Assembly (NCBI GenBank): GCA_038064915.1
Contig: JBBTSB010000005.1
Span: 10,615 to 74,614 of the forward strand
Origin: Patescibacteria group bacterium
GTDB taxonomy: Bacteria; Patescibacteriota; Minisyncoccia; 2-02-FULL-40-12; IGHO2-01-FULL-4-A
Length of the DNA stretch: 64,000 nt
Direction of reading: 5' to 3'
Under the pieces are notes generated by a model. The model was given only the letters and a program-made list of their open reading frames with translations, had not been told where the DNA came from and did not search any database. How positions within the stretch are numbered: position 1 is the stretch's first letter; every line of letters starts with the position of its first letter. The position numbers were made by a program, and so were the translations under genes. Of the stretch, positions 18,390 to 27,743 are shown in pieces.

Positions 18390-19445
18390 TTATTTTCCTA
18401 ACACGACTCCGAGGACGCGGTCAATGATCGCAAACATATGATCACGCGTATTTGTCATCAAAAGGTATTGATCGCCGTCGGGCATGGTAACAATGGCATA
18501 GTCTAAGCTATTGAATGCATCAGGAAAGTTTCTGTATCGTATCACGGTATTTTGATAGGTATTGCTGAGAAAACCTTCGGATGCAGAACGTTGTGTGTTG
18601 AGCTGAAAGAATGTTTTCAGATCCCGAGCCATCGTGGATTCCCAGTCGGTCAAAGCTGTCTGCGCAGCTACAGTATCATTGATCTTGAATGCATATCCCA
18701 AACCACTTGATCCGTCTGGTTTTCCAAATGATGACCGATACACATATTCCGGATCAAATGAGAAGTCAAGAGCAGGAAATGGAAAATCAGCGAGAACAGC
18801 ATGAGACATCTTCAGTTCACCCACGGACAAGTTTCCCTCAAGGGATTGCGTCGGGTGAAATATCTCCTCGAATCCAAACATAGGGGTTGGTGTCGGAGTC
18901 GCGGAAGACGTAGGAGTTGGGGTCGGTTCGGGGTTGGACTTGCTTCCCAGGAGAAAGAGAACCACTAGCATAATAACTACAAATATGCCCACAATAATCC
19001 AAATCATTGGCTTTTTTCGGCGTTTTCCGTCAGGGGGCAAATTTACCGGAGCTGGCGGACGCGGGGGAGTTTGCCCGAATGATCGCTGTTCAGGGGGACG
19101 TGGCGTCGAAACAGCTGGTGGAACCGTAATACCAGAAGGTTTTGTTTTTGCTACGTCCTGCTCCATGGTTCTGACAGAAGAGCGAAACGTTGGTGGGGCC
19201 TGGCCAACGATCTGGGGACCTGAGGGGCGGGCGGGTGCTGGGGCAGGTTGCGGAACTCCCGATGGAGGCAAGTGGGGAGCAGGGGAAGGTGTAACATTTG
19301 AGAGATTGGTTTCCTTTACCGGGATCGTCGGAGGTGGCGAAATAGGCCGGGGCGGAAGTGTCGGCGGAGGCGTCGGAGGAACGGCCGGTTGTGGTGGTCG
19401 TGGAGGAAGAGTTGGCTTTGGTGGGAGAGGATTTACATCTGCCAT
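18390..19445 (-). CDS. Proline-rich membrane-anchored hypothetical protein
   Basis: PPxP-rich N-terminal 150 aa, one TM helix (WIIVGIFVVIMLVVLFLLG), Thr/Pro linker, C-terminal globular domain. Confidence 0.55.
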   Translation of the reverse strand: MADVNPLPPKPTLPPRPPQPAVPPTPPPTLPPRPISPPPTIPVKETNLSNVTPSPAPHLPPSGVPQPAPAPARPSGPQIVGQAPPTFRSSVRTMEQDVAKTKPSGITVPPAVSTPRPPEQRSFGQTPPRPPAPVNLPPDGKRRKKPMIWIIVGIFVVIMLVVLFLLGSKSNPEPTPTPTSSATPTPTPMFGFEEIFHPTQSLEGNLSVGELKMSHAVLADFPFPALDFSFDPEYVYRSSFGKPDGSSGLGYAFKINDTVAAQTALTDWESTMARDLKTFFQLNTQRSASEGFLSNTYQNTVIRYRNFPDAFNSLDYAIVTMPDGDQYLLMTNTRDHMFAIIDRVLGVVLGK

Positions 19446-19454
19446 AGAAGTGGA

Positions 19455-21524
19455 TTACTTCATTGTCAGATTTATTCTACCATACTCATCAATATTTTTA
19501 ACTCGAACGTGGATAACTTGCCCGACCTTGAGTATGTCAGACGGTTTTCTGATCCGTTCTTCTGACGGAATTTCACTTACGTGAACGAGTCCATCTTTGC
19601 CGGGAAGGTACTCAACCATGGCACCAAAATCCAGCAATCGCGTGATACGGCCGTCAAATTCGTCACCTGGTTTTGCTTCGTAGGTGATATTGAGAACCAG
19701 TTTTTTGGCTTCTTCCATGCTCGCAGGATTGTCGGAGGTGATAAATACCAGTCCACTATCATCAATATCGATGGCGACACCTGTTTGATCAATGATTTTG
19801 TTGATGACCTTGCCTCCGGGACCAATGAGGGCGCCGATTTTTTCAGGGTTGATTTCAATCGTGGCAACTCGGGGAGCGTATTTGGAAAGCTCCGCACGAG
19901 GCGCCTGAATTGCCTTTGCCATGCTTGCTAAAATTTCTAAACGTGCGGTCCGCGCTTGCTCGAGCGTCTTCATCAGCACCTCTTCAGTGATGCCCTCGAT
20001 CTTGACATCCATCTGCATAGCAGTGACACCATCCTTGGTGCCCGCAACTTTCATGTCCATGTCTCCATGGTGGTCTTCCGGGCCTTGGATGTCGGTGAGA
20101 ATTTTGTACTTTTCACCCTTGTCATCGAACATGAGCCCCATGGCGATACCGGCAGCGGGGCCTTTGATGGGGACGCCACCGTCCATCATGGCAAGCACGG
20201 ATCCACACACTGATGCCATGGAAGATGATCCGTTTGAGGACAAAATTTCAGATACCAAACGAATCGTATAGGGGAATTCTTCCTTGGGGGGCAGGAGTGG
20301 CTCCATGGCGCGCTCGGCAAGGTAACCATGGCCCATCTCACGGCGTTTGGGAGCACCGAAGCGTCCCACCTCTCCAACGGAGAACGGCGGGAAAACATAG
20401 TGGTGCATGAAGCGACGTTTGGTCAGATCGATTTCCATAGTTTCCACCCATTGTTCCATACCCGGAGCGCCGAGGGTGAGAATGGAGAGCGCTTGCGTTG
20501 TGCCGCGGTTGAAGAGTCCCGAGCCGTGCGAGTAGGGGAGGACGGCGACTTCGGAACTCAACGCGCGCAACTGATCAGTCTTGCGGCCATCCGGGCGCTT
20601 TTCGGATTCGAGAATGTTTTTGTGAACGATGCGATCGATTTCTTCTTCAAAAACCACCTTTGACTCAGCAAATTTTTCGGGCTGAACAAAATCTTTGAGT
20701 TCCTTTTCAATGCCGCGCAAACCCTCTACATACGCCATTTTGTGAGGCGTATAGAGGACTTTTTCAAGTTTTGGCGCAACAAAATCGCGAACCGACTTGT
20801 CGAGCTCCATGTCACGTGTTGCGATTTCCAATACGCGCTTTGGCGTATTAATTTCCGCAGCAATTTCGTTTTGGAATTTAATCAATTCCTGCATTTCCTT
20901 GAAACCCTCCACAATAGCATGGGCGATGTCTTTTTCAGGGACGATGTTGGCTCCGGCTTCGATCATGTTCATTTTGTCGGCAGTGCCGGCAACGACGATG
21001 TCAAAATCTGATTTGAGACGCTCCGCATAGGTAGGATTGAAGACGAGCTTGCCATCCACTCTGCCTACACGAATACCAGCGACAGGACCGTCAAAGGGGA
21101 TGTCGGAGATCATGAGAGCAAGGGAAGCGCCAAACAGCGCCAAGACATCGGTGTCATTGACGCGATCAAAGGACAAAACGGTGGCTACCACCTGAATATC
21201 ATTGCGAATGTTTGAATCAAAGCGGGGACGCAGGGCGCGATCGATCAAGCGTCCCGAAAGAATCGCTTCATCAGATGGTCGGCCTTCGCGCTTGATCCAC
21301 TTACTTCCTTTGATTTTGCCTGCGGCGTAGTATTTTTCTTCGTATTCTACCGAGAGAGGGAAATAGTCGGCTTGACCGGGTTTGGGAGCCATCACCGCAG
21401 TCACCAACACGGCGCTATCTCCGTAGCGCACAAATGCAGAACCATCGGCCTGTTGAGCCAATTTACCAAGTTCAACGGTCAAAGTTTTGCCCGCGAACTC
21501 ACGAGTATATTTTTTTACTTCCAT
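19455..21524 (-). CDS. pnp: Polyribonucleotide nucleotidyltransferase (PNPase)
   Basis: Two RNase PH domains, KH and S1 (GRVVRITDFGAFV-like GRITRLLDFGAMVE); 689 aa. Confidence 0.92.
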   Translation of the reverse strand: MEVKKYTREFAGKTLTVELGKLAQQADGSAFVRYGDSAVLVTAVMAPKPGQADYFPLSVEYEEKYYAAGKIKGSKWIKREGRPSDEAILSGRLIDRALRPRFDSNIRNDIQVVATVLSFDRVNDTDVLALFGASLALMISDIPFDGPVAGIRVGRVDGKLVFNPTYAERLKSDFDIVVAGTADKMNMIEAGANIVPEKDIAHAIVEGFKEMQELIKFQNEIAAEINTPKRVLEIATRDMELDKSVRDFVAPKLEKVLYTPHKMAYVEGLRGIEKELKDFVQPEKFAESKVVFEEEIDRIVHKNILESEKRPDGRKTDQLRALSSEVAVLPYSHGSGLFNRGTTQALSILTLGAPGMEQWVETMEIDLTKRRFMHHYVFPPFSVGEVGRFGAPKRREMGHGYLAERAMEPLLPPKEEFPYTIRLVSEILSSNGSSSMASVCGSVLAMMDGGVPIKGPAAGIAMGLMFDDKGEKYKILTDIQGPEDHHGDMDMKVAGTKDGVTAMQMDVKIEGITEEVLMKTLEQARTARLEILASMAKAIQAPRAELSKYAPRVATIEINPEKIGALIGPGGKVINKIIDQTGVAIDIDDSGLVFITSDNPASMEEAKKLVLNITYEAKPGDEFDGRITRLLDFGAMVEYLPGKDGLVHVSEIPSEERIRKPSDILKVGQVIHVRVKNIDEYGRINLTMK

Positions 21525-21691
21525 AACATACTATCCCGAGCGAAGAGAGGAGAGTAACGAGGATTCTGGCCACAACATTCGATGTTCGAATACTTTGGCT
21601 AGTGCCCCTTTATTCCATGTTCCTCATCTCGCTTTTTGCTTGGGAAATTACTAAAGAAAGCGTAGCATAGAATGACCTAAAACACTAGTAT

Positions 21692-21725
21692 CTCCTCCCA
21701 ACCTCCTCTTACCATTAAGAGGAGG
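21692..21725 (-). repeat. Hairpin CCTCCTCTTA-ATGG-TAAGAGGAGG followed by TTGGGAGGAG (minus-strand reading), ~170 nt upstream of pnp
   Basis: Same architecture as the elements at 2491 and 2898 (10-bp stem with an SD-like 3' arm, then TTGGGAGG). Confidence 0.6.
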
Positions 21726-21740
21726 GGCATAATTAATTTG

Positions 21741-22007
21741 TCACATTCGTTGCAGGAAAAAAATTGCAATAATTACCAGCAACACGAAGAAGACAAGAAT
21801 AATCCGTGCACGTTTAGCTGTAGGATAAGACATCGTGTATGCACGTTTCGCATAACCGTCTGCAATGCCGACTCTTTTCTTACACTCTTCATTTTCCCTG
21901 CATGCCAAAAAACTTCCCATCTCAACCATGGAGTCGCGGCAGATCCCTTTGCCGCAGTTTTTGCAGGTCCCAACCGCTTCTTTATTCGGGTGATAAAAGC
22001 AATTCAT
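21741..22007 (-). CDS. Zinc-ribbon (B-box-like) tail-anchored membrane protein, paralog A
   Basis: MNCFYHPNKEAVGTCKNCGKGICRDS...LAC...C then C-terminal TM ILVFFVLLVIIAIFFL; its ATG overlaps the upstream stop (ATGA). Confidence 0.6.
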   Translation of the reverse strand: MNCFYHPNKEAVGTCKNCGKGICRDSMVEMGSFLACRENEECKKRVGIADGYAKRAYTMSYPTAKRARIILVFFVLLVIIAIFFLQRM

Positions 22008-22201
22008 AGAGAAGTGATGATCATAGTAAGCACTAAAAGTCCGAGCCCAATGAGAACAAATGCGAACGTCTTGTATACTTTGGCGTGCGGTTTGCAAAAC
22101 AGCACCGTGCCCAAAGATTTGGAAGATTCTGCGCATATTCCACGCTTGCAGACACTACAGATGCCTATCGCTTCAGAGTTTTCGTGTTCATGGCATTGCA
22201 T
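22004..22201 (-). CDS. Zinc-ribbon tail-anchored membrane protein, paralog B (65 aa)
   Basis: MQCHEHENSEAIGICSVCKRGICAES...FCKPH then TM FAFVLIGLGLLVLTMIITSL. Confidence 0.55.
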   Translation of the reverse strand: MQCHEHENSEAIGICSVCKRGICAESSKSLGTVLFCKPHAKVYKTFAFVLIGLGLLVLTMIITSL

Positions 22202-22221
22202 ACCTGTATAGTACGCCAGCC

Positions 22222-22704
22222 TTAGCGCTCTGTAAACCGGAACGTGGAGAGAATCAAAGGAATTCTGCCGATGCCATCCCTTTCATCATCCACCACCGTG
22301 ATCTCAAAATCATTACCCATATGCTGAAACCGATAGTAATCCGTGCGAATATAGCCCTGTCGGCAAATGATATGGTTCATTTTTATGTCATTAACGACTT
22401 TTGTACTGGCTATAAAATCGGTCGAACCCTCACACAACCAGGAATTTTTGGGATTTACGTTTACGGTAAAAGACCCGATCGTGTCAAACCGTGCCGTTAC
22501 CATTATTCCCGCCATGTCCAGTTTCTTTTGGAGAGAAAAGTCATCAGGATATCTGAATTCAAATCCGTATTCCTTGTTTTGGTATATTGGCCAGGTGGTA
22601 GGATCTACCGACGGGGGAACCAAGCGCTGGGGAGCATCAATAACCAAGCTCGCGAAAATGCCGAGAACCCCGATAGCGATGAGGAGGTTGATGAAGCGGT
22701 TCAT
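22222..22704 (-). CDS. Secreted/signal-anchored protein with one YxNxEYGF motif domain, C-terminal ...LILSTFRFTER
   Basis: Start MNRFINLLIAIGVLGIFASL (signal anchor); motif WPIYQNKEYGFEFRYPDDF; paralog of 22991-24451. Confidence 0.6.
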   Translation of the reverse strand: MNRFINLLIAIGVLGIFASLVIDAPQRLVPPSVDPTTWPIYQNKEYGFEFRYPDDFSLQKKLDMAGIMVTARFDTIGSFTVNVNPKNSWLCEGSTDFIASTKVVNDIKMNHIICRQGYIRTDYYRFQHMGNDFEITVVDDERDGIGRIPLILSTFRFTER

Positions 22705-22967
22705 ACGGGAAAATGGAGGAATCGGGAGAGCAAAAGAGAAAGTAGCATGAACCCAACAATGATAATGAGAACAAGACGTATCCACTTCAAGTATCTCCTG
22801 GTACGAGTTGTGAGATCATTTGCTAGGTGAACTCTTGTCTGGCACTGGTCATTTTCCATGCATGCCAAAAAGCTTCCTATTTCTACCACCGAGTCGCGAC
22901 AGATTCCTTTTCCACAGTTTTTGCAGGTTCCCACAGCTTCTTTTTGCGGATGATAGAAACAGTTCAT
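22701..22967 (-). CDS. Zinc-ribbon tail-anchored membrane protein, paralog C
   Basis: MNCFYHPQKEAVGTCKNCGKGICRDSVVEIGSFLAC... has its first 26 aa almost identical to paralog A; C-terminal TM; its stop overlaps the next start (ATGA). Confidence 0.6.
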   Translation of the reverse strand: MNCFYHPQKEAVGTCKNCGKGICRDSVVEIGSFLACMENDQCQTRVHLANDLTTRTRRYLKWIRLVLIIIVGFMLLSLLLSRFLHFPV

Positions 22968-22990
22968 AGGCTCATCGTACGCCAGCTTTG

Positions 22991-24451
22991 CTAGTCTGTA
23001 AACCGAAACGTGGAGAGAATTTGTTGAGACCACGGCTCGTATGCGACCGTAGATATATCAAATGTTACATTCGCGCGTTGGACATAGAGTTGGTATATTG
23101 AAGGATATTTTTGCGGAAGTTCAATGCATGCTAATCCACGTTCACCGGCAAACGATATTTCATTTCCTTCACAGAATCCATTGATAAAGAGAGGATCTTT
23201 TTCGAGAAGAGTTCTGGGTGATTCCGTACGGATTGAAACGTCAAAGAATGGGGCACCCGCACCACGTTGGAACAAGGAAATATGATTTTCTTGTTCCATG
23301 ATTTCCCAATGACTTGGAATAGTAGTCTCAAATCCGTACTCCTCATTCCGATAGGTTTTCCATGGAGATGGATTGAATACCTTAACTGTCTCGATAATCT
23401 GTCCCGCAATATCATTGGCGTAGCTAAACCATCGAGGCGGAAGCGCAAATACATATTTGCTGTTTTGTCCCAATTTTATTGGACCAATGGGAGCGGCACT
23501 GACAACTAAACTCGAGTTTTGAACCAATTTCCACTGCTCACGAGTAAAAACTAAGACAGGAATATTTTGTAGCGACTCATCTGGTAGTTGTGGAGGATTG
23601 ATAGAGATTATGGGACCTGTGGTATCAGCAATGTCATTACCATTCCATGTATCAGCAGTAATCGAATATCCCTCCCAACTGGGTGGCAACAGGAAACTAA
23701 ATCCATATTGATCATTTCGGTAGAGTTTCCAGCCTCCGAGGGTCATGGTATCGAGAATTTGATAGATCGTCTGATCGGTTGCCTGCCATGGTTCGTCGGT
23801 ATGCTCAAGATCTTGAACGGAAACAATTATTTTCACAACAAACTTTTTGTCTGGACTTTCGATGTATACCGTACTCCAAAAAGGCCACTCTCCACCTGGA
23901 GAGTGATGAATGTTGTATCCGACCCATGCGGTTAAACCATTCGACGTCGTATATTTTTGTGGCACCGCTCCCGACTGGCGCAGATCTTCATCACCACCGT
24001 ATGCTTCGGCATCTCGGCTCTCAAGTTGAAACGAGTCGGCAAGTTCGCTTTGACTTGTTCCCGAGGGATAGCCCTTGTAAATCCATTGATCTTGAGAGGC
24101 AGAAAATTCATAGATTCCATTAGAACCCCAGTTGGTTGCATAGTATTGCATGCCGTTAAGTGGTCGCAGTAAAACTCGTGTTTCGAGCGTATCAGATGAG
24201 TCAGATATCTCTGGTCCACTATACGCACGAAACGCTTTTGTTTTCTCTAGGTATTCGTAAAACCTCGGATACTTGAATTCAATCTGGTGAGTGGGATTGA
24301 GATAGGTGAACCAGTTGAGTTTTTCTGATGAAACAACCGTGGTTGGAGAAGGAGAGAATGAGGTTTCTTTTGATAATTTTAGTCCCACAAACAAGCTCGC
24401 GATGATGCCGAGTACACCGACAGCGATGAGATAGTTGATGAAGCGGGTCAT
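22991..24451 (-). CDS. Secreted/signal-anchored protein with three W-x-Y-x-N-x-EYGF repeats, C-terminal ...QQILSTFRFTD
   Basis: Start MTRFINYLIAVGVLGIIASL; motifs at WFTYLNPTHQIEFKYP, WKLYRNDQYGFSFLLPPSW and WKTYRNEEYGFETTIPSHW. Confidence 0.6.
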   Translation of the reverse strand: MTRFINYLIAVGVLGIIASLFVGLKLSKETSFSPSPTTVVSSEKLNWFTYLNPTHQIEFKYPRFYEYLEKTKAFRAYSGPEISDSSDTLETRVLLRPLNGMQYYATNWGSNGIYEFSASQDQWIYKGYPSGTSQSELADSFQLESRDAEAYGGDEDLRQSGAVPQKYTTSNGLTAWVGYNIHHSPGGEWPFWSTVYIESPDKKFVVKIIVSVQDLEHTDEPWQATDQTIYQILDTMTLGGWKLYRNDQYGFSFLLPPSWEGYSITADTWNGNDIADTTGPIISINPPQLPDESLQNIPVLVFTREQWKLVQNSSLVVSAAPIGPIKLGQNSKYVFALPPRWFSYANDIAGQIIETVKVFNPSPWKTYRNEEYGFETTIPSHWEIMEQENHISLFQRGAGAPFFDVSIRTESPRTLLEKDPLFINGFCEGNEISFAGERGLACIELPQKYPSIYQLYVQRANVTFDISTVAYEPWSQQILSTFRFTD

Positions 24452-24458
24452 GGGATAG

Positions 24459-25523
24459 TTACGGTTCTGGTACCCAGAGTTCGTTGTTGACATAGATGTT
24501 GACGCTTTCTACTGAAGGAAACTGTTTGAGCGTGTTGGCGATTCCGGATTGAAAGGCAAGATCGCCGCAAAGTCCCATGTGAGCCGAGCCTGGGCCGTTG
24601 ATGTCATAATCAGGCAGACTAAACTTCACGGTGGCAACTCCATTGGTGATCGTCACAGAGTTTAGCGAAAGAAGACCGTACCCTCCTCCGGTGTACCCAA
24701 GCTTTTTTTCTTCCTCGGTGGGACCCTGCATCCATAAAGCAACAGATTCCGTTGCAGGAGTTTTTGTAATATGGATTTGTCGCTCAACCGGATAGGTTAC
24801 TCTGCAGTCGAGAATTTGAGAATCTTTGACGGTGTTGAAAAAGAATAGCTTAATGCTCATTCGCGGGAAATACTGCACCCATGTGTTGCTCACGTATGTT
24901 TCATAGGTTTGCGTGGAAAGATCATAGATTGTTGCCGAGATAACTCTTCCGTCTATGATAGGACCAGCATCATAGTCACCCCAGGTAAAGAATCGGTTAT
25001 TATCAAGCCAAGCAAAGTAATCAGTTCCGCAGAGGGCTGCACCACAGTACGCCAGCTGGTAAAAGTGATGATTTTTGAGATCCCAGAGAGCTATAAACGT
25101 ATCCGGATCGCATGCGGCAGGGGAGCTTTGAAGTGCATAGCGACCATCGGGAGAGTACAGAGGATCTGAAGCTTTTATGCCTCCGGAACATCCTTCACCC
25201 ATAAAAATTGGTTTGCCACTAGCATCGAAAAAATTCGGAGATTCTACCAGATTAATCTTTCCTTCTGTTTGCAGGGTAAAAACCAAATCGGGCATGTCAC
25301 GATCGGCTCGTTTTTGAGTGGCGAGATACCCCTTGAACTCGGCATTGCTGGCTATTTCTGATGGCAATGGTTTATCAGGTAAGATATCCGATGATGACGA
25401 TGGCGATGTTGTCGGAGTGGAAAAACTGGTTTGTTCGCCCAAGGTTCCAGGCCTTGTAAACAAGCTTGCAATGATGCCGAGAATGCCGATGGCGATTAAG
25501 AGGTTGGTTATATTCTTTTCCAT
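24459..25523 (-). CDS. Secreted protein with a related signal anchor and a C-terminal GerMN-like domain
   Basis: MEKNITNLLIAIGILGIIASL; the C-terminal ...ALWMQGPTEEEKKLGYTGG...SVTITNGVATVKFS resembles GerMN. Confidence 0.55.
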   Translation of the reverse strand: MEKNITNLLIAIGILGIIASLFTRPGTLGEQTSFSTPTTSPSSSSDILPDKPLPSEIASNAEFKGYLATQKRADRDMPDLVFTLQTEGKINLVESPNFFDASGKPIFMGEGCSGGIKASDPLYSPDGRYALQSSPAACDPDTFIALWDLKNHHFYQLAYCGAALCGTDYFAWLDNNRFFTWGDYDAGPIIDGRVISATIYDLSTQTYETYVSNTWVQYFPRMSIKLFFFNTVKDSQILDCRVTYPVERQIHITKTPATESVALWMQGPTEEEKKLGYTGGGYGLLSLNSVTITNGVATVKFSLPDYDINGPGSAHMGLCGDLAFQSGIANTLKQFPSVESVNIYVNNELWVPEP

Positions 25524-25783
25524 ACGTTTTGGTAAATCACGGATCGGTGTTGAATGATTAGTATTTTGACCACACGTTTCTCAATTTTGAAAATGACTCG
25601 GTGGTCACCTACGCGCAACTTGCGGTACCCATGCAGAGAACGACGCAGGGGTTTGCCGTACAGTTCCGGTTCGGTCGTCAGACGTGTTTCGATGGCCTGT
25701 TTGATCCGGTCCCGCATACGCTTCGGGAGCTCAGGAATATCGTTACGAACAACAAGCTCATGGTATCTGATCGTAAAACTCAT
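25508..25783 (-). CDS. RelE/ParE family type II toxin
   Basis: MSFTIRYHELVVRNDIPELPKRMRDRIKQAIE...LRVGDHRVIFKIEKRVVKILIIQHR is the typical RelE/StbE pattern. Confidence 0.8.
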   Translation of the reverse strand: MSFTIRYHELVVRNDIPELPKRMRDRIKQAIETRLTTEPELYGKPLRRSLHGYRKLRVGDHRVIFKIEKRVVKILIIQHRSVIYQNVWKRI

Positions 25784-26001
25784 GACCAGGCCTTCGCGTG
25801 GCTCACAAAGCGCGCTTTTTTGGTGTCGCGAGCTTGCGCCAAGCGATCCCAGGCTCCATCCTCCTCGATTTCAATAGCCAATTTGAGTAAATCAGCCGCT
25901 TTGGTGGCTTGTGGAACACGATCCCGCCTGGCGAGGTACGCCAGCGCCCTTTCTAGAGGATCAGAAAGCGATACATTGACGCGATGTTTTGTGGTAGGCA
26001 T
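25780..26001 (-). CDS. RHH/CopG-type antitoxin partner
   Basis: A 73-aa ORF overlapping the toxin start by 4 nt; ribbon-helix-helix-like HRVNVSLSDPLERALAYLARRD. Confidence 0.7.
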   Translation of the reverse strand: MPTTKHRVNVSLSDPLERALAYLARRDRVPQATKAADLLKLAIEIEEDGAWDRLAQARDTKKARFVSHAKAWS

Positions 26002-26050
26002 GTCTTGAGTGTATCAAAAGTGTAGCACCGAGGTCAAGAACCGGAGGGAG

Positions 26051-26557
26051 TTAGTGTATCAAAAACTTTTTTACTTCGCTTTCGAGATCATGGAATACAT
26101 CCACAGCCTCTTTGAGTTTGCCGGAGGTACTGCGGCCAAAGGACATCGCTTCGACTTTGAGGCCTTTGTTGATTTTGAGGTATTCTACCAACGGAATGAA
26201 ATCGCCGTCGCCACTTACAATCACGGCCACATCAATTTTGTCAGCCAAAATTACGGCATCCATGGCCATTCCGACGTCCCAGTCAGCCTTTTTGGCACCA
26301 CCAGCAAACACCTGGAGGTCTTTGACTTTGATTTCGTAGCCTGACTTTTCGAGGGCTTCAATAAAGGCCGTTTCATCGCCGGCCTCGGTCTTGATGACGT
26401 ACACAAAGGCCCGGATGAGCTTGCGCGTACCCACCGCTTCCTCCAGCACTTTCTTAAAATTTACCTTGGCGTGGTAGAGGTTCTTTGCCGTGTGGTACAT
26501 GTTTTGCGCATCAACAAACACACCGACGCGCTGGTGCTCTGACTCTTGAGTATTCAT
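26051..26557 (-). CDS. NYN-domain (LabA/DUF88) protein
   Basis: VGVFVDAQNMYH...DVAMAMDAV...VIVSGDGDFIPLV has the NYN/LabA acidic residues. Confidence 0.8.
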   Translation of the reverse strand: MNTQESEHQRVGVFVDAQNMYHTAKNLYHAKVNFKKVLEEAVGTRKLIRAFVYVIKTEAGDETAFIEALEKSGYEIKVKDLQVFAGGAKKADWDVGMAMDAVILADKIDVAVIVSGDGDFIPLVEYLKINKGLKVEAMSFGRSTSGKLKEAVDVFHDLESEVKKFLIH

Positions 26558-26613
26558 TTTTTGAGGCTTAGTAATTATGAAAAAGAAAAATTATGAAAAA
26601 TATCTGTTCGAAC

Positions 26614-26880
26614 TTACCCTCGCAAACCCAACGACTTTACGATCTTTCCATGTCGGGTAGGATCCTCACGCTTCAAAAAATCCAGCATACGCTTGCGTTT
26701 GGCAACCATTTTCAAAAGGCCTCGGCGCGAGCTTATGTCTTTGACGTGCTTTTTCAAATGCTTTGCCAGCCGCTCAATTTCCTCGGTGAAGAGAGAAATC
26801 TGCACTTCCGGCGATCCCGTATCGCCCTCATGCGTGGCGGCTTTGGTGATCACTTTAGCTTTTTGTTGAGGCGCTAACAT
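26614..26880 (-). CDS. rpsO: 30S ribosomal protein S15
   Basis: MLAPQQKAKVITKAATHEGDTGSPEVQISLFTEEIERLAKHLKKHVKDISSRRGLLKMVAKRKRMLDFLKR; start ATG 26880. Confidence 0.92.
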   Translation of the reverse strand: MLAPQQKAKVITKAATHEGDTGSPEVQISLFTEEIERLAKHLKKHVKDISSRRGLLKMVAKRKRMLDFLKREDPTRHGKIVKSLGLRG

Positions 26881-26903
26881 GAAGATTATGATATCATAAG
26901 TTC

Positions 26904-27743
26904 GTGGATATTGCAAGACTCAAAACTGAATTCCTAGAGTACTTGGAAATTGAGAAAAACCGTTCTCCCAAGACGATCGAGAATTATGATCACTATATTG
27001 GCCGTATTTTGCAGTTTTTGAATGCGAAAACTCCCGGAGATCTTACCGAAGAGGGGATACGGAAGTTTCGTATCGACCTTAATCGTCAGCCTATAAAAAA
27101 AATCACCCAGAACTACCATATCATCGCCTTGCGATCGTTTTTGAAATATTTGGCGAAGCGCGATATCAAGGCGCTCGCACCGGAAAAACTCGAGCTTTCA
27201 AAACAGGAAGATCGCGAGGTTTCATTTCTGGAGCAGGATGAATTAAACAAAGTTCTGACATCTGCCGAGAACTTGCGCGATCGGGCCATTCTGGAAACAC
27301 TCTTCTCTACCGGTTTGCGCGTTTCTGAATTGATTTCGTTGAAGAGAAATGAGATTGACTTTAATCGTGGCGAGTTCACCGTCCGAGGGAAGGGGAGCAA
27401 GTTGCGTGTCGTTTTTCTTTCGGATTCGGCGATCGAGGCTATCGAGGCATATTTGGAAAAACGCACGGACATTGAGCCGGAACTGTTTCCCCTTACGGTG
27501 CGACAAATTCAGCGCATTGTCCGCAAATATGCTATCAAGGCTGGCATCGTCGGCAAGAAAGTTTCGCCACACTCACTTCGTCACAGCTATGCGACAGACC
27601 TGCTTCGTAACGGCGCGGATATTCGTAGCGTCCAAGCCATGCTCGGCCACGCGTCAGTCACCACTACGCAAATTTACACCCACGTGACGGACAAACAGCT
27701 TCGCGATATCCACAAACGATTTCATGGAAAATCCAAAGAATAG
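26904..27743 (+). CDS. Tyrosine recombinase (XerC/XerD family)
   Basis: N-terminal SAM-like core-binding domain; catalytic R..HSLRHSYAT...LGH....TTQIYTHV with Tyr. Confidence 0.85.
   Translation: MDIARLKTEFLEYLEIEKNRSPKTIENYDHYIGRILQFLNAKTPGDLTEEGIRKFRIDLNRQPIKKITQNYHIIALRSFLKYLAKRDIKALAPEKLELSKQEDREVSFLEQDELNKVLTSAENLRDRAILETLFSTGLRVSELISLKRNEIDFNRGEFTVRGKGSKLRVVFLSDSAIEAIEAYLEKRTDIEPELFPLTVRQIQRIVRKYAIKAGIVGKKVSPHSLRHSYATDLLRNGADIRSVQAMLGHASVTTTQIYTHVTDKQLRDIHKRFHGKSKE

Follow-up and report, generated by a model that had tools for sequence, protein, structure and literature searches.

A variable gene slot within the rpsO-NYN-pnp arrangement of a Candidatus Yanofskybacteria genome

Why would a bacterium with a small, streamlined genome keep several kilobases of extra genes in the near-universal operon of rpsO (ribosomal protein S15) and pnp (polynucleotide phosphorylase, or PNPase)? 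This question is raised by the window analyzed here, a stretch of 64,000 nucleotides from contig JBBTSB010000005.1 of assembly GCA_038064915.1, in which pnp and rpsO are separated by 5089 bp. A preliminary description proposed that this interval is an insertion hotspot rather than core operon content. All of the genes that it named are present where it placed them, and the interval does include a variable slot. On the other hand, two of the supposed signs of insertion, a NYN-domain gene and a tyrosine recombinase, turned out to be part of the conserved backbone, and we found no signature of integration. We conclude that the finding is real but of an ordinary type, a genomic plasticity hotspot that is probably home-grown for the most part.

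The host is a metagenome-assembled genome (MAG) of Candidatus Yanofskybacteria (Parcubacteria/Paceibacterota), in the candidate phyla radiation (CPR); this placement of the ultra-small organism comes from the relatives of its PNPase. The sequence of the window recurs without any difference in CAYHVA010000002.1, a contig of a MAG from Hainich groundwater (GCA_964360345.1). An independently made Logan assembly (ERR3858114) reproduces the interval at 100% identity, which excludes an assembly artefact. We retrieved 80 related genome loci via PNPase and compared all of the genes in the window to them by tblastn. (Related loci are given L-labels; the best matches to the PNPase are 86% identical in L001 and 78% identical in L002.) The metagenome loci are L089–L168, and a metagenome scan with NYN as the query gave 49 further loci that contain both NYN and pnp.

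The backbone of the region consists of these genes:

pnp, 19455–21524, minus strand: polynucleotide phosphorylase (Pfam RNase_PH twice, KH, and S1)
NYN gene, 26051–26557, minus strand: predicted RNase with a LabA-like, PIN-fold NYN domain (PF01936, 125 bits versus a cut-off of 24.2)
rpsO, 26614–26880, minus strand: ribosomal protein S15 (Pfam Ribosomal_S15, 102.8 bits)
xer, 26904–27743, plus strand: Xer-type tyrosine recombinase, divergent from rpsO (Pfam Phage_integrase, 146 bits; NCBIfam XerA, 250.6 bits versus a cut-off of 220)

The full order is xer (divergent), rpsO, NYN, the slot, pnp with its leader, a gene for a membrane protein (p351), dksA, and comM. This order is widespread in Parcubacteria. 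The NYN gene is immediately 5' of pnp in 59 of the 80 genome loci, and it follows rpsO in metagenome loci as well. Among the genome loci, NYN is missing only from outgroups (Firmicutes, Dehalococcoidia, Saccharibacteria, Peribacteria, CPR3, and Kuenenbacteria); where outgroup loci lack it, rpsO and pnp are 57–474 nt apart. No other protein of the set is as well conserved as NYN: compared with L001, its identity is 93%, while PNPase reaches 86% and S15 reaches 70%. Because NYN keeps its position in most of the genome loci and is more conserved than the products of pnp or rpsO, it is not cargo, as had been assumed, but a core member of a rpsO-NYN-pnp arrangement across the Parcubacteria. The protein is a member of PF01936 and a predicted ribonuclease: the acidic motifs FVDAQN, DWDVG, and SGDGDF are visible in the sequence, and the nearest solved structure is 2QIP (PDB; E = 1e-21). 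In a literature search on the NYN domain together with rpsO and pnp, none of the 15 best-ranked papers mentioned NYN.

The tyrosine recombinase does abut rpsO, as described. However, it does not look like an inserting integrase. It passes the cut-off for XerA, and it adjoins rpsO in 33 genome loci, regardless of whether the slot is full or empty. We therefore consider it to be a housekeeping-type Xer and a backbone neighbor.

This leaves a shorter segment as the variable part:

variable segment (cargo), 21635–26050, minus strand: about 4.4 kb, from blastn against L002, whose slot is empty

Because nucleotide homology to the empty site of L002 is limited to 27724–26058 and 21634–19459, the cargo runs from about 21635 to 26050. 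The slot is thus bounded by the stop codon of NYN on one side and by a conserved leader of pnp on the other. Across the 59 genome loci, NYN and pnp are separated by a median of 176 nt; the gap is wider than 500 nt in 13 loci, and the widest is 2578 nt. Among the 49 metagenome loci, it exceeds 500 nt in 21 and 1 kb in 17, with a maximum of 5352 nt (L139). At 4526 nt, the gap in the window is second only to that of L139.

The slot turns over rapidly. In L001 it contains genes with GH10 and SLH domains; in L002 it is empty (143 nt); and in L089 it contains Ig-like genes on the opposite strand. So, the interval between rpsO and pnp is a site of gene turnover, as first suspected. Other contents include a papain-like protease (L105), a reprolysin-like protease (L107), and several kinds of toxin-antitoxin pairs, namely HicBA (L006/L100), ParE (L016 and L125), and MNT/HepT (L093).

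At the same time, families that are found in the window recur in the slots of distant relatives. Membrane-anchored proteins that resemble PsbP_2 (the sec genes, described below) are found in the slots of L004, L006, L011, L016, L024, L032/L033, L090, L107, L135, L138, and L139, with three in tandem in L090/L091 and four in L135. Genes with a GerMN domain are found in the slots of L004 (together with sec), L108/L109, and L139, and in L139 the GerMN gene precedes sec, as in the window. A homolog of zinc-ribbon protein zr1 (44% identical) is encoded directly after NYN in L093. Within 10 kb of pnp in either direction, across the 80 genome loci, matches to a hidden Markov model (HMM) of the sec domain are nearly confined to slot genes. 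The arrangement is partly ancestral, since the same cargo families recur in the slots of distant relatives. An ancestral arrangement with core-like conservation in close relatives had been named as the refuting condition, and the conservation is not core-like: the recurring families (PsbP/Mog1-fold, GerMN, zinc-ribbon, and toxin-antitoxin) are just 22–50% identical, and their presence among close relatives is patchy (L090, for example, carries three sec genes; L001 and L002 are as described above).

Could genes that diverge this much have been inherited vertically? As a yardstick for fast-evolving syntenic genes, we used the gene downstream of pnp:

p351, 18390–19445, minus strand: proline-rich membrane protein, 3' of pnp; its position is kept in relatives, at 24–46% identity

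In the nearest relatives, p351 is 39–46% identical. Because its divergence is similarly high, fast vertical divergence of the slot genes is plausible. In particular, sec500 and sec160 are 35% and 29% identical to proteins from L090, a distance over which the syntenic p351 retains 41% identity.

The slot holds nine same-strand, tightly packed genes, and three gene pairs have overlapping start and stop codons (ATGA). These genes include a putative RHH-ParE/RelE pair (RHH stands for ribbon-helix-helix), one GerMN protein, two PsbP/Mog1-fold proteins, and three tail-anchored zinc-ribbon proteins. Here we give corrected coordinates for zr1, zr2, sec160, zr3, and sec500 (probable in the case of sec500):

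antitoxin gene, 25780–26001, minus strand: putative RHH-type antitoxin, 73 aa, from its position and its 4-nt overlap with the toxin gene
toxin gene, 25508–25783, minus strand: ParE/RelE-superfamily toxin, 91 aa (PF05016, 32.8 bits versus a cut-off of 23)
GerMN gene, 24459–25523, minus strand: protein with an N-terminal membrane anchor and a C-terminal GerMN domain (PF10646, 37.7 bits versus 23, residues 243–348)
sec500, 22991–24451, minus strand: anchored protein with three W-x-Y-x-N-x2-YGF...ILSTFRF (PsbP_2-like) repeats (PF18933, 38.6 bits versus 27)
zr3, 22701–22967, minus strand: N-terminal C-x2-H-x8-C-x2-C-x4-C ribbon and C-terminal transmembrane helix; ATGA overlap with sec160
sec160, 22222–22704, minus strand: membrane-anchored single-domain protein with the PsbP/Mog1 fold, linked to sec500 by a domain HMM (E = 3e-39)
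zr2, 22004–22201, minus strand: short tail-anchored zinc-ribbon paralog, 65 aa; ATGA overlap with zr1
zr1, 21741–22007, minus strand: tail-anchored zinc-ribbon protein, paralog of zr3 (61% amino acid identity)

The GerMN protein, sec500, and sec160 share an architecture: an N-terminal transmembrane helix, a linker rich in Pro/Thr/Ser, and an extracytoplasmic domain. They are type-II anchored, and their predicted topology suggests that they are located at the cell surface. The likely start of sec500 is Met15 of a 500-residue open reading frame (ORF). The fold of sec160 is the alpha/beta sandwich of PsbP/Mog1. Identity to other proteins with this fold (PsbP_2; BT_1490; the mycobacterial proteins MTC28/LpqN; and TplEi/Tsi3, immunity proteins of type VI secretion systems) is only 6–16%, and unlike these, the proteins from this CPR group have a specific signature, W-x-Y-x-N-x2-YGF...ILSTF(K/R)F.

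All three zinc-ribbon genes are missing from the public gene calls for the identical contig. Nevertheless, purifying selection acts on them. In the 36 leading codons of zr1 and zr3, which cover the zinc ribbon, there are 15 synonymous changes and 4 non-synonymous changes, which indicates that these are real genes and that the duplication is old; dS is saturated, and dN/dS is about 0.02–0.06. The wider zr family comprises proteins of about 120 amino acids with the N-terminal C-x2-H-x8-C-x2-C-x4-C ribbon and transmembrane segments, and about 1500 representative clusters match it. Word-indexed protein searches with zr or with sec160 returned only the queries themselves, and an exact-protein look-up of zr3 found nothing on record; homologs of zr and sec came to light only with a multi-sequence profile and with HMMER run exhaustively. 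Homologs of sec are hypothetical proteins of about 200 amino acids in many lineages of CPR.

The duplicated modules of secreted and zinc-ribbon proteins that had been noticed at the outset are real. A 139-nt repeat (D1; 21871–22009 and 22831–22969, 82% identical) corresponds to the zinc-ribbon coding region. A 47-nt repeat within the islet is 83% identical. Another repeat (D4) encodes the conserved C-terminus ILSTFRFT and includes the spacer before the zr genes. Finally, repeat D2 is the N-terminal transmembrane anchor that is common to GerMN (25458–25520), sec500 (24389–24451), and sec160 (22642–22704). The anchor sequence, M-x-RFINxLIAxGxLGIxASL, is shared only within this genome. At the DNA level, the anchors of sec160 and sec500 are 84% identical to each other and 68% identical to that of GerMN, while the ectodomains are about 30% identical as proteins or else unrelated. 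Because the anchor DNA is near-identical and the ectodomains have diverged, the pattern at D2 indicates tandem duplication and homogenization within the genome. The shared anchors suggest gene conversion or the shuffling of modules. The same pattern is seen in the third and fourth sec genes of L135. We found no paralogs of the cargo outside the islet within the 64-kb window.

At the upstream end of the slot is the putative toxin-antitoxin pair. The toxin and its 4-nt overlap with the preceding gene are as described, but the antitoxin is only weakly similar to RelB/DinJ (E = 0.03, residues 7–33) and does not match any Pfam family. Otherwise the pair resembles type II RelE/ParE-RHH modules, which have a small antitoxin gene upstream, a 4-nt overlap, a toxin above the threshold for ParE_toxin, and a promoter-like site with a repeated sequence upstream. 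The pair differs from such modules in the weak assignment of the antitoxin and because the toxin gene overlaps the GerMN gene by 16 nt. Given this overlap, the toxin may be co-translated with the cargo. The slot genes may also be co-transcribed. A consensus scan identified this site:

promoter-like site, 26008–26037, minus strand: TTGACC-18-(TG)TACACT, 5' of the antitoxin gene

An exact 12-nt direct repeat, TTTTGATACACT (minus strand), is present at 26008–26019 and 26053–26064, which are 45 nt apart. The copy at 26053–26064 is in the 3' end of NYN, and the one at 26008–26019 is in the –10 region of the promoter-like site. This repeat could be an operator for the antitoxin or a scar from the insertion of the pair. 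As a sign of target duplication, TTTTGATACACT is no more than suggestive. The toxin-antitoxin segment has a GC content of about 51%, which is higher than in the rest of the islet. Overall, the pair looks like a later addition.

Elsewhere, PsbP_2-like genes are found directly 3' of toxin-antitoxin pairs, in some cases with overlapping stop and start codons (L085, 4781–5621; L086, 4503–5546; L006, 8304–9317; L016, 8494–9589). The preceding families are HicA in L085, DUF4258/DUF2283 in L086, HicBA in L006, and ParE in L016.

If the cargo had been brought in by an integrase, then we would expect to see traces of it. We did not find any att-like direct or inverted repeats at the boundaries: the longest shared words are 6–9 nt, which is no better than in shuffled sequences. 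There is no tRNA within 14 kb of the islet; in window coordinates, the nearest tRNA genes lie at 6.8 kb and 47.8 kb. A comparison of GC content and codon usage with the flanks had been suggested as a check, and the composition is host-like (GC content of 45.6% versus 47.2%; rank 35 of 120 by tetranucleotide distance; and codon scores within 1 standard deviation). No similarity to phages or viruses was found by blastn against phages or by scanning viral contigs with sec500. None of the cargo matches a defense system; PADLOC's only hit is a weak match of the NYN gene to a generic NYN model. Since the recombinase does not co-vary with the slot's content, and there are no att repeats, no tRNA target, and no departure from native composition, we rejected an integrase-borne island.

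What is fixed at the pnp side? Three elements lie between zr1 and pnp:

hairpin element, 21692–21725, minus strand: 10-bp hairpin and GGGAGGAG at the 3' end of the cargo, right after zr1; unique in the window
short block, 21640–21670, minus strand: TATGCTA...TAGTAATTT, 5' of the leader; conserved in an alignment with L001, L002, and L003
pnp leader, 21544–21633, minus strand: conserved structured 5' leader of 90 nt that forms a long irregular stem-loop, supported by covariation, and ends 19 nt before the ATG of pnp

The hairpin had been described as marking the pnp side of the islet. It consists of CCTCCTCTTA-ATGG-TAAGAGGAGG at 21702–21725, followed by TTGGGAGGAG at 21692–21701, and it does lie at the end of the cargo and is unique, but the fixed landmark is the leader. 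The element at 21692–21725 may act as a transcription stop or may stabilize an RNA 3' end. As an intrinsic terminator, the hairpin at 21702–21725 is not convincing: it lacks a U-tract, and a terminator scan made no call. Similarly, the block at 21640–21670 may be pnp's own promoter, and it fits the sigma-70 consensus poorly, so we did not classify it as a sigma-70 promoter.

The evidence for the leader comes from the comparison of many loci. The RNAalifold consensus has 25 pairs, of which 15 show compensatory changes. Paired cells account for 90.9%, versus 73.9% in shuffled alignments. The covariation score is 0.509 versus 0.203 (exceeded in 0 of 500 shuffles), and controls that were slid along the sequence scored at most 0.17. 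A covariance model found the leader in 45 of the searched loci, including sequences that were outside the training set. Its plus-strand matches are all between NYN and pnp, its minus-strand matches are weak and at the same sites, and it matched nothing else in 1.94 Mb. The leader is just 5' of pnp in L001–L016, L090, L135, L139, and others; in 29 loci where it was located with a regular expression, it ends 15–33 nt (mostly 15–24 nt) before the start of pnp. The 5' strand contains GAGGAA, the 3' strand contains UUACUCNCCUCUC, and the middle has an invariant GGG and AAUC. There is no obvious Shine-Dalgarno sequence for pnp. No Rfam family matches anything within 19–28 kb of the window, including the leader, at E ≤ 1.

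In filled slots where the model found a leader, the leader is on the pnp side of the cargo, which is consistent with pnp retaining regulation of its own. In the genome set, the slot is filled in 13 of 31 loci with the leader and in none of the 28 without it. We considered that a leader might be a prerequisite for a filled slot, but the metagenome set includes three distant counterexamples (L158, L160, and L164). These have filled gaps without a leader of this (R1) type, so the link is only partial.

Taken together, the slot is probably a long-standing hypervariable locus for envelope proteins that has been shaped by duplication, divergence, loss, and replacement, and not an insertion carried by an integrase. 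We propose that the sec, GerMN, and zr families were inherited within the slot and evolved quickly. Modules of sec and zr would have been duplicated in tandem, with the 5' anchor regions homogenized within the genome. Sister lineages would have lost or replaced their cargo, probably by homologous recombination through the conserved flanks, NYN and pnp. The toxin-antitoxin pair, which is self-contained and has its own promoter-like site, would have been added later, beside NYN. The cargo may be tolerated because it lies 5' of pnp's own structured leader, so that the regulation of pnp would be undisturbed.

Several observations weigh against this explanation. The nearest relatives whose slots are readable carry unrelated cargo (L001 and L089) or none (L002), so several losses or replacements must be assumed if the cargo was inherited vertically. 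The recurrence could also be due to gene families that are abundant in the CPR having been inserted repeatedly and independently. In other CPR genomes, PsbP_2-like genes are found between other housekeeping genes, often just after toxin-antitoxin pairs, and these contexts fit cassette-like mobility. Identities of 22–50% are too low to call orthologs reliably. And the three metagenome loci with filled gaps but no leader do not fit with a slot that is permitted by the leader.

The strongest competing explanation builds on these points. Small cassettes, each with a toxin-antitoxin pair and in some cases a PsbP-like gene, might have been captured repeatedly and independently, without an integrase, and would move among intergenic sites of the CPR through processes such as illegitimate recombination or the recombination that follows natural transformation. 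The recurrence of families would then reflect the abundance of the cassettes and not ancestry. This would explain why PsbP_2-like genes follow toxin-antitoxin pairs of differing families (L085, L086, L006, and L016), why sister genomes have unrelated cargo, and why the toxin-antitoxin segment has a raised GC content. Twelve nucleotides from the 3' end of NYN are repeated 45 nt further downstream, in the promoter-like site of the pair, and comM, which is a marker of natural competence, is nearby in the backbone. However, we did not find the ends of a cassette or repeats that would delimit one; the adjacent toxin-antitoxin families differ, which argues against a single conserved cassette; and the overall composition is native. 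Also, the order of GerMN and then sec is shared with the distant L139, and the divergence of the sec proteins from those of L090 matches that of a syntenic ortholog. We consider this explanation to be unlikely, although it deserves more weight than the two that follow.

Another idea is that the cargo extends an operon for RNA metabolism, in which a RelE-type interferase and the zinc-ribbon proteins would be partners of the NYN RNase and PNPase and not unrelated envelope genes. All of the genes lie on one strand, closely spaced, with a gene of RNA metabolism on either side; the RelE/ParE superfamily (PF05016) includes mRNA interferases among its toxins; and zinc ribbons can bind nucleic acids. 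But in most relatives the slot has no cargo at all or contains secreted hydrolases, the larger proteins of the cargo are anchored at their N-termini and have extracytoplasmic folds, and zr belongs to a broad family of membrane proteins for which we found no link to RNA. This makes a role in RNA metabolism very improbable.

Finally, the whole interval from rpsO to pnp, including NYN, might be a mobile islet that was inserted site-specifically via the adjacent tyrosine recombinase, with the hairpin and GGGAGGAG marking its end: the recombinase does adjoin rpsO, the interval does differ among relatives, and the hairpin is unique and at the pnp-side end, but this model is largely refuted already and has hardly any chance of being correct, given that NYN is kept in place across Parcubacteria (and is 93% identical in the nearest relative), that the Xer-type recombinase is beside rpsO with the slot empty or full, and that there are no boundary repeats beyond chance, no tRNA target, and native composition and codon usage.

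A second variable slot is present in some relatives, between the divergent xer and rpsO (L001, 1379–3201; L010, 2035–4639; L077, 4137–6729). From reading the sequences, L001 has a DNA methyltransferase and a restriction-enzyme-like pair there, L010 has a transposase-like ORF, and L008 has a small toxin-like ORF. In the window, this gap is empty (23 nt, 26881–26903). Because dif sits beside xer in some single-Xer systems, it is conceivable that Xer mediates the capture of genes at this second slot.

Another locus from the Yanofskybacteria, L009 (1–10000), contains the leader and pnp, and within 10 kb upstream there is no NYN, rpsO, or xer. In their place are four large same-strand ORFs of 517, 317, 1303, and 1057 amino acids. 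A rearrangement may account for this, or an insertion of much greater size.

We think that the rpsO-NYN-pnp arrangement and the pnp leader, which is absent from Rfam, are more noteworthy than the islet. In the rpsO-pnp operon of E. coli, a hairpin in the pnp leader is processed by RNase III, and PNPase regulates its own expression. As in E. coli, rpsO is 5' of pnp on the same strand, and the leader of pnp forms a long irregular stem-loop. In contrast to E. coli, a gene for a NYN RNase always lies between them, so this is not a rpsO-pnp operon of the enterobacterial type, and the leader is not related to the enterobacterial one by Rfam or by sequence. We speculate, tentatively, that in the Yanofskybacteria clade, where pnp has this leader, NYN cleaves it, in addition to or instead of RNase III; that PNPase controls its own mRNA; and that decoupling by the leader permits the slot. 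This would be a new circuit for RNA decay, though we are doubtful that all of it holds.

As for the slot, it resembles the genomic plasticity hotspots of many bacterial pangenomes, in which the genes between conserved core flanks are turned over by homologous recombination. Its flanks (NYN and the leader with pnp) are fixed and its content differs between close relatives; toxin-antitoxin and surface or secreted proteins are enriched; and it has no dedicated integrase or att site and a native composition. It differs from them in being inside what is otherwise the rpsO-pnp operon of a streamlined CPR genome, and in that the PsbP-like, GerMN, and zinc-ribbon families persist across deep divergence. 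Because the same few families persist, part of the slot's content looks inherited and not imported. Genomic islands were found to be abundant in Patescibacteria generally in a study of groundwater (PMC12455944).

Some of these results should be useful for other genomes. The annotation is corrected, as three zinc-ribbon genes that are under selection had been missed. The conserved rpsO-NYN-pnp arrangement and a covariation-supported leader RNA of pnp can be reused as well. More broadly, our results suggest that genomes in the CPR, even though very small and streamlined, retain loci that are dedicated to envelope proteins and toxin-antitoxin modules and that evolve quickly, and that such a locus can occupy a near-universal operon without the mechanism of a mobile element. 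Surface proteins are the likely interface between an episymbiont and its host, so a mapped hypervariable slot whose flanks are fixed offers a practical way to study strain-level variation.

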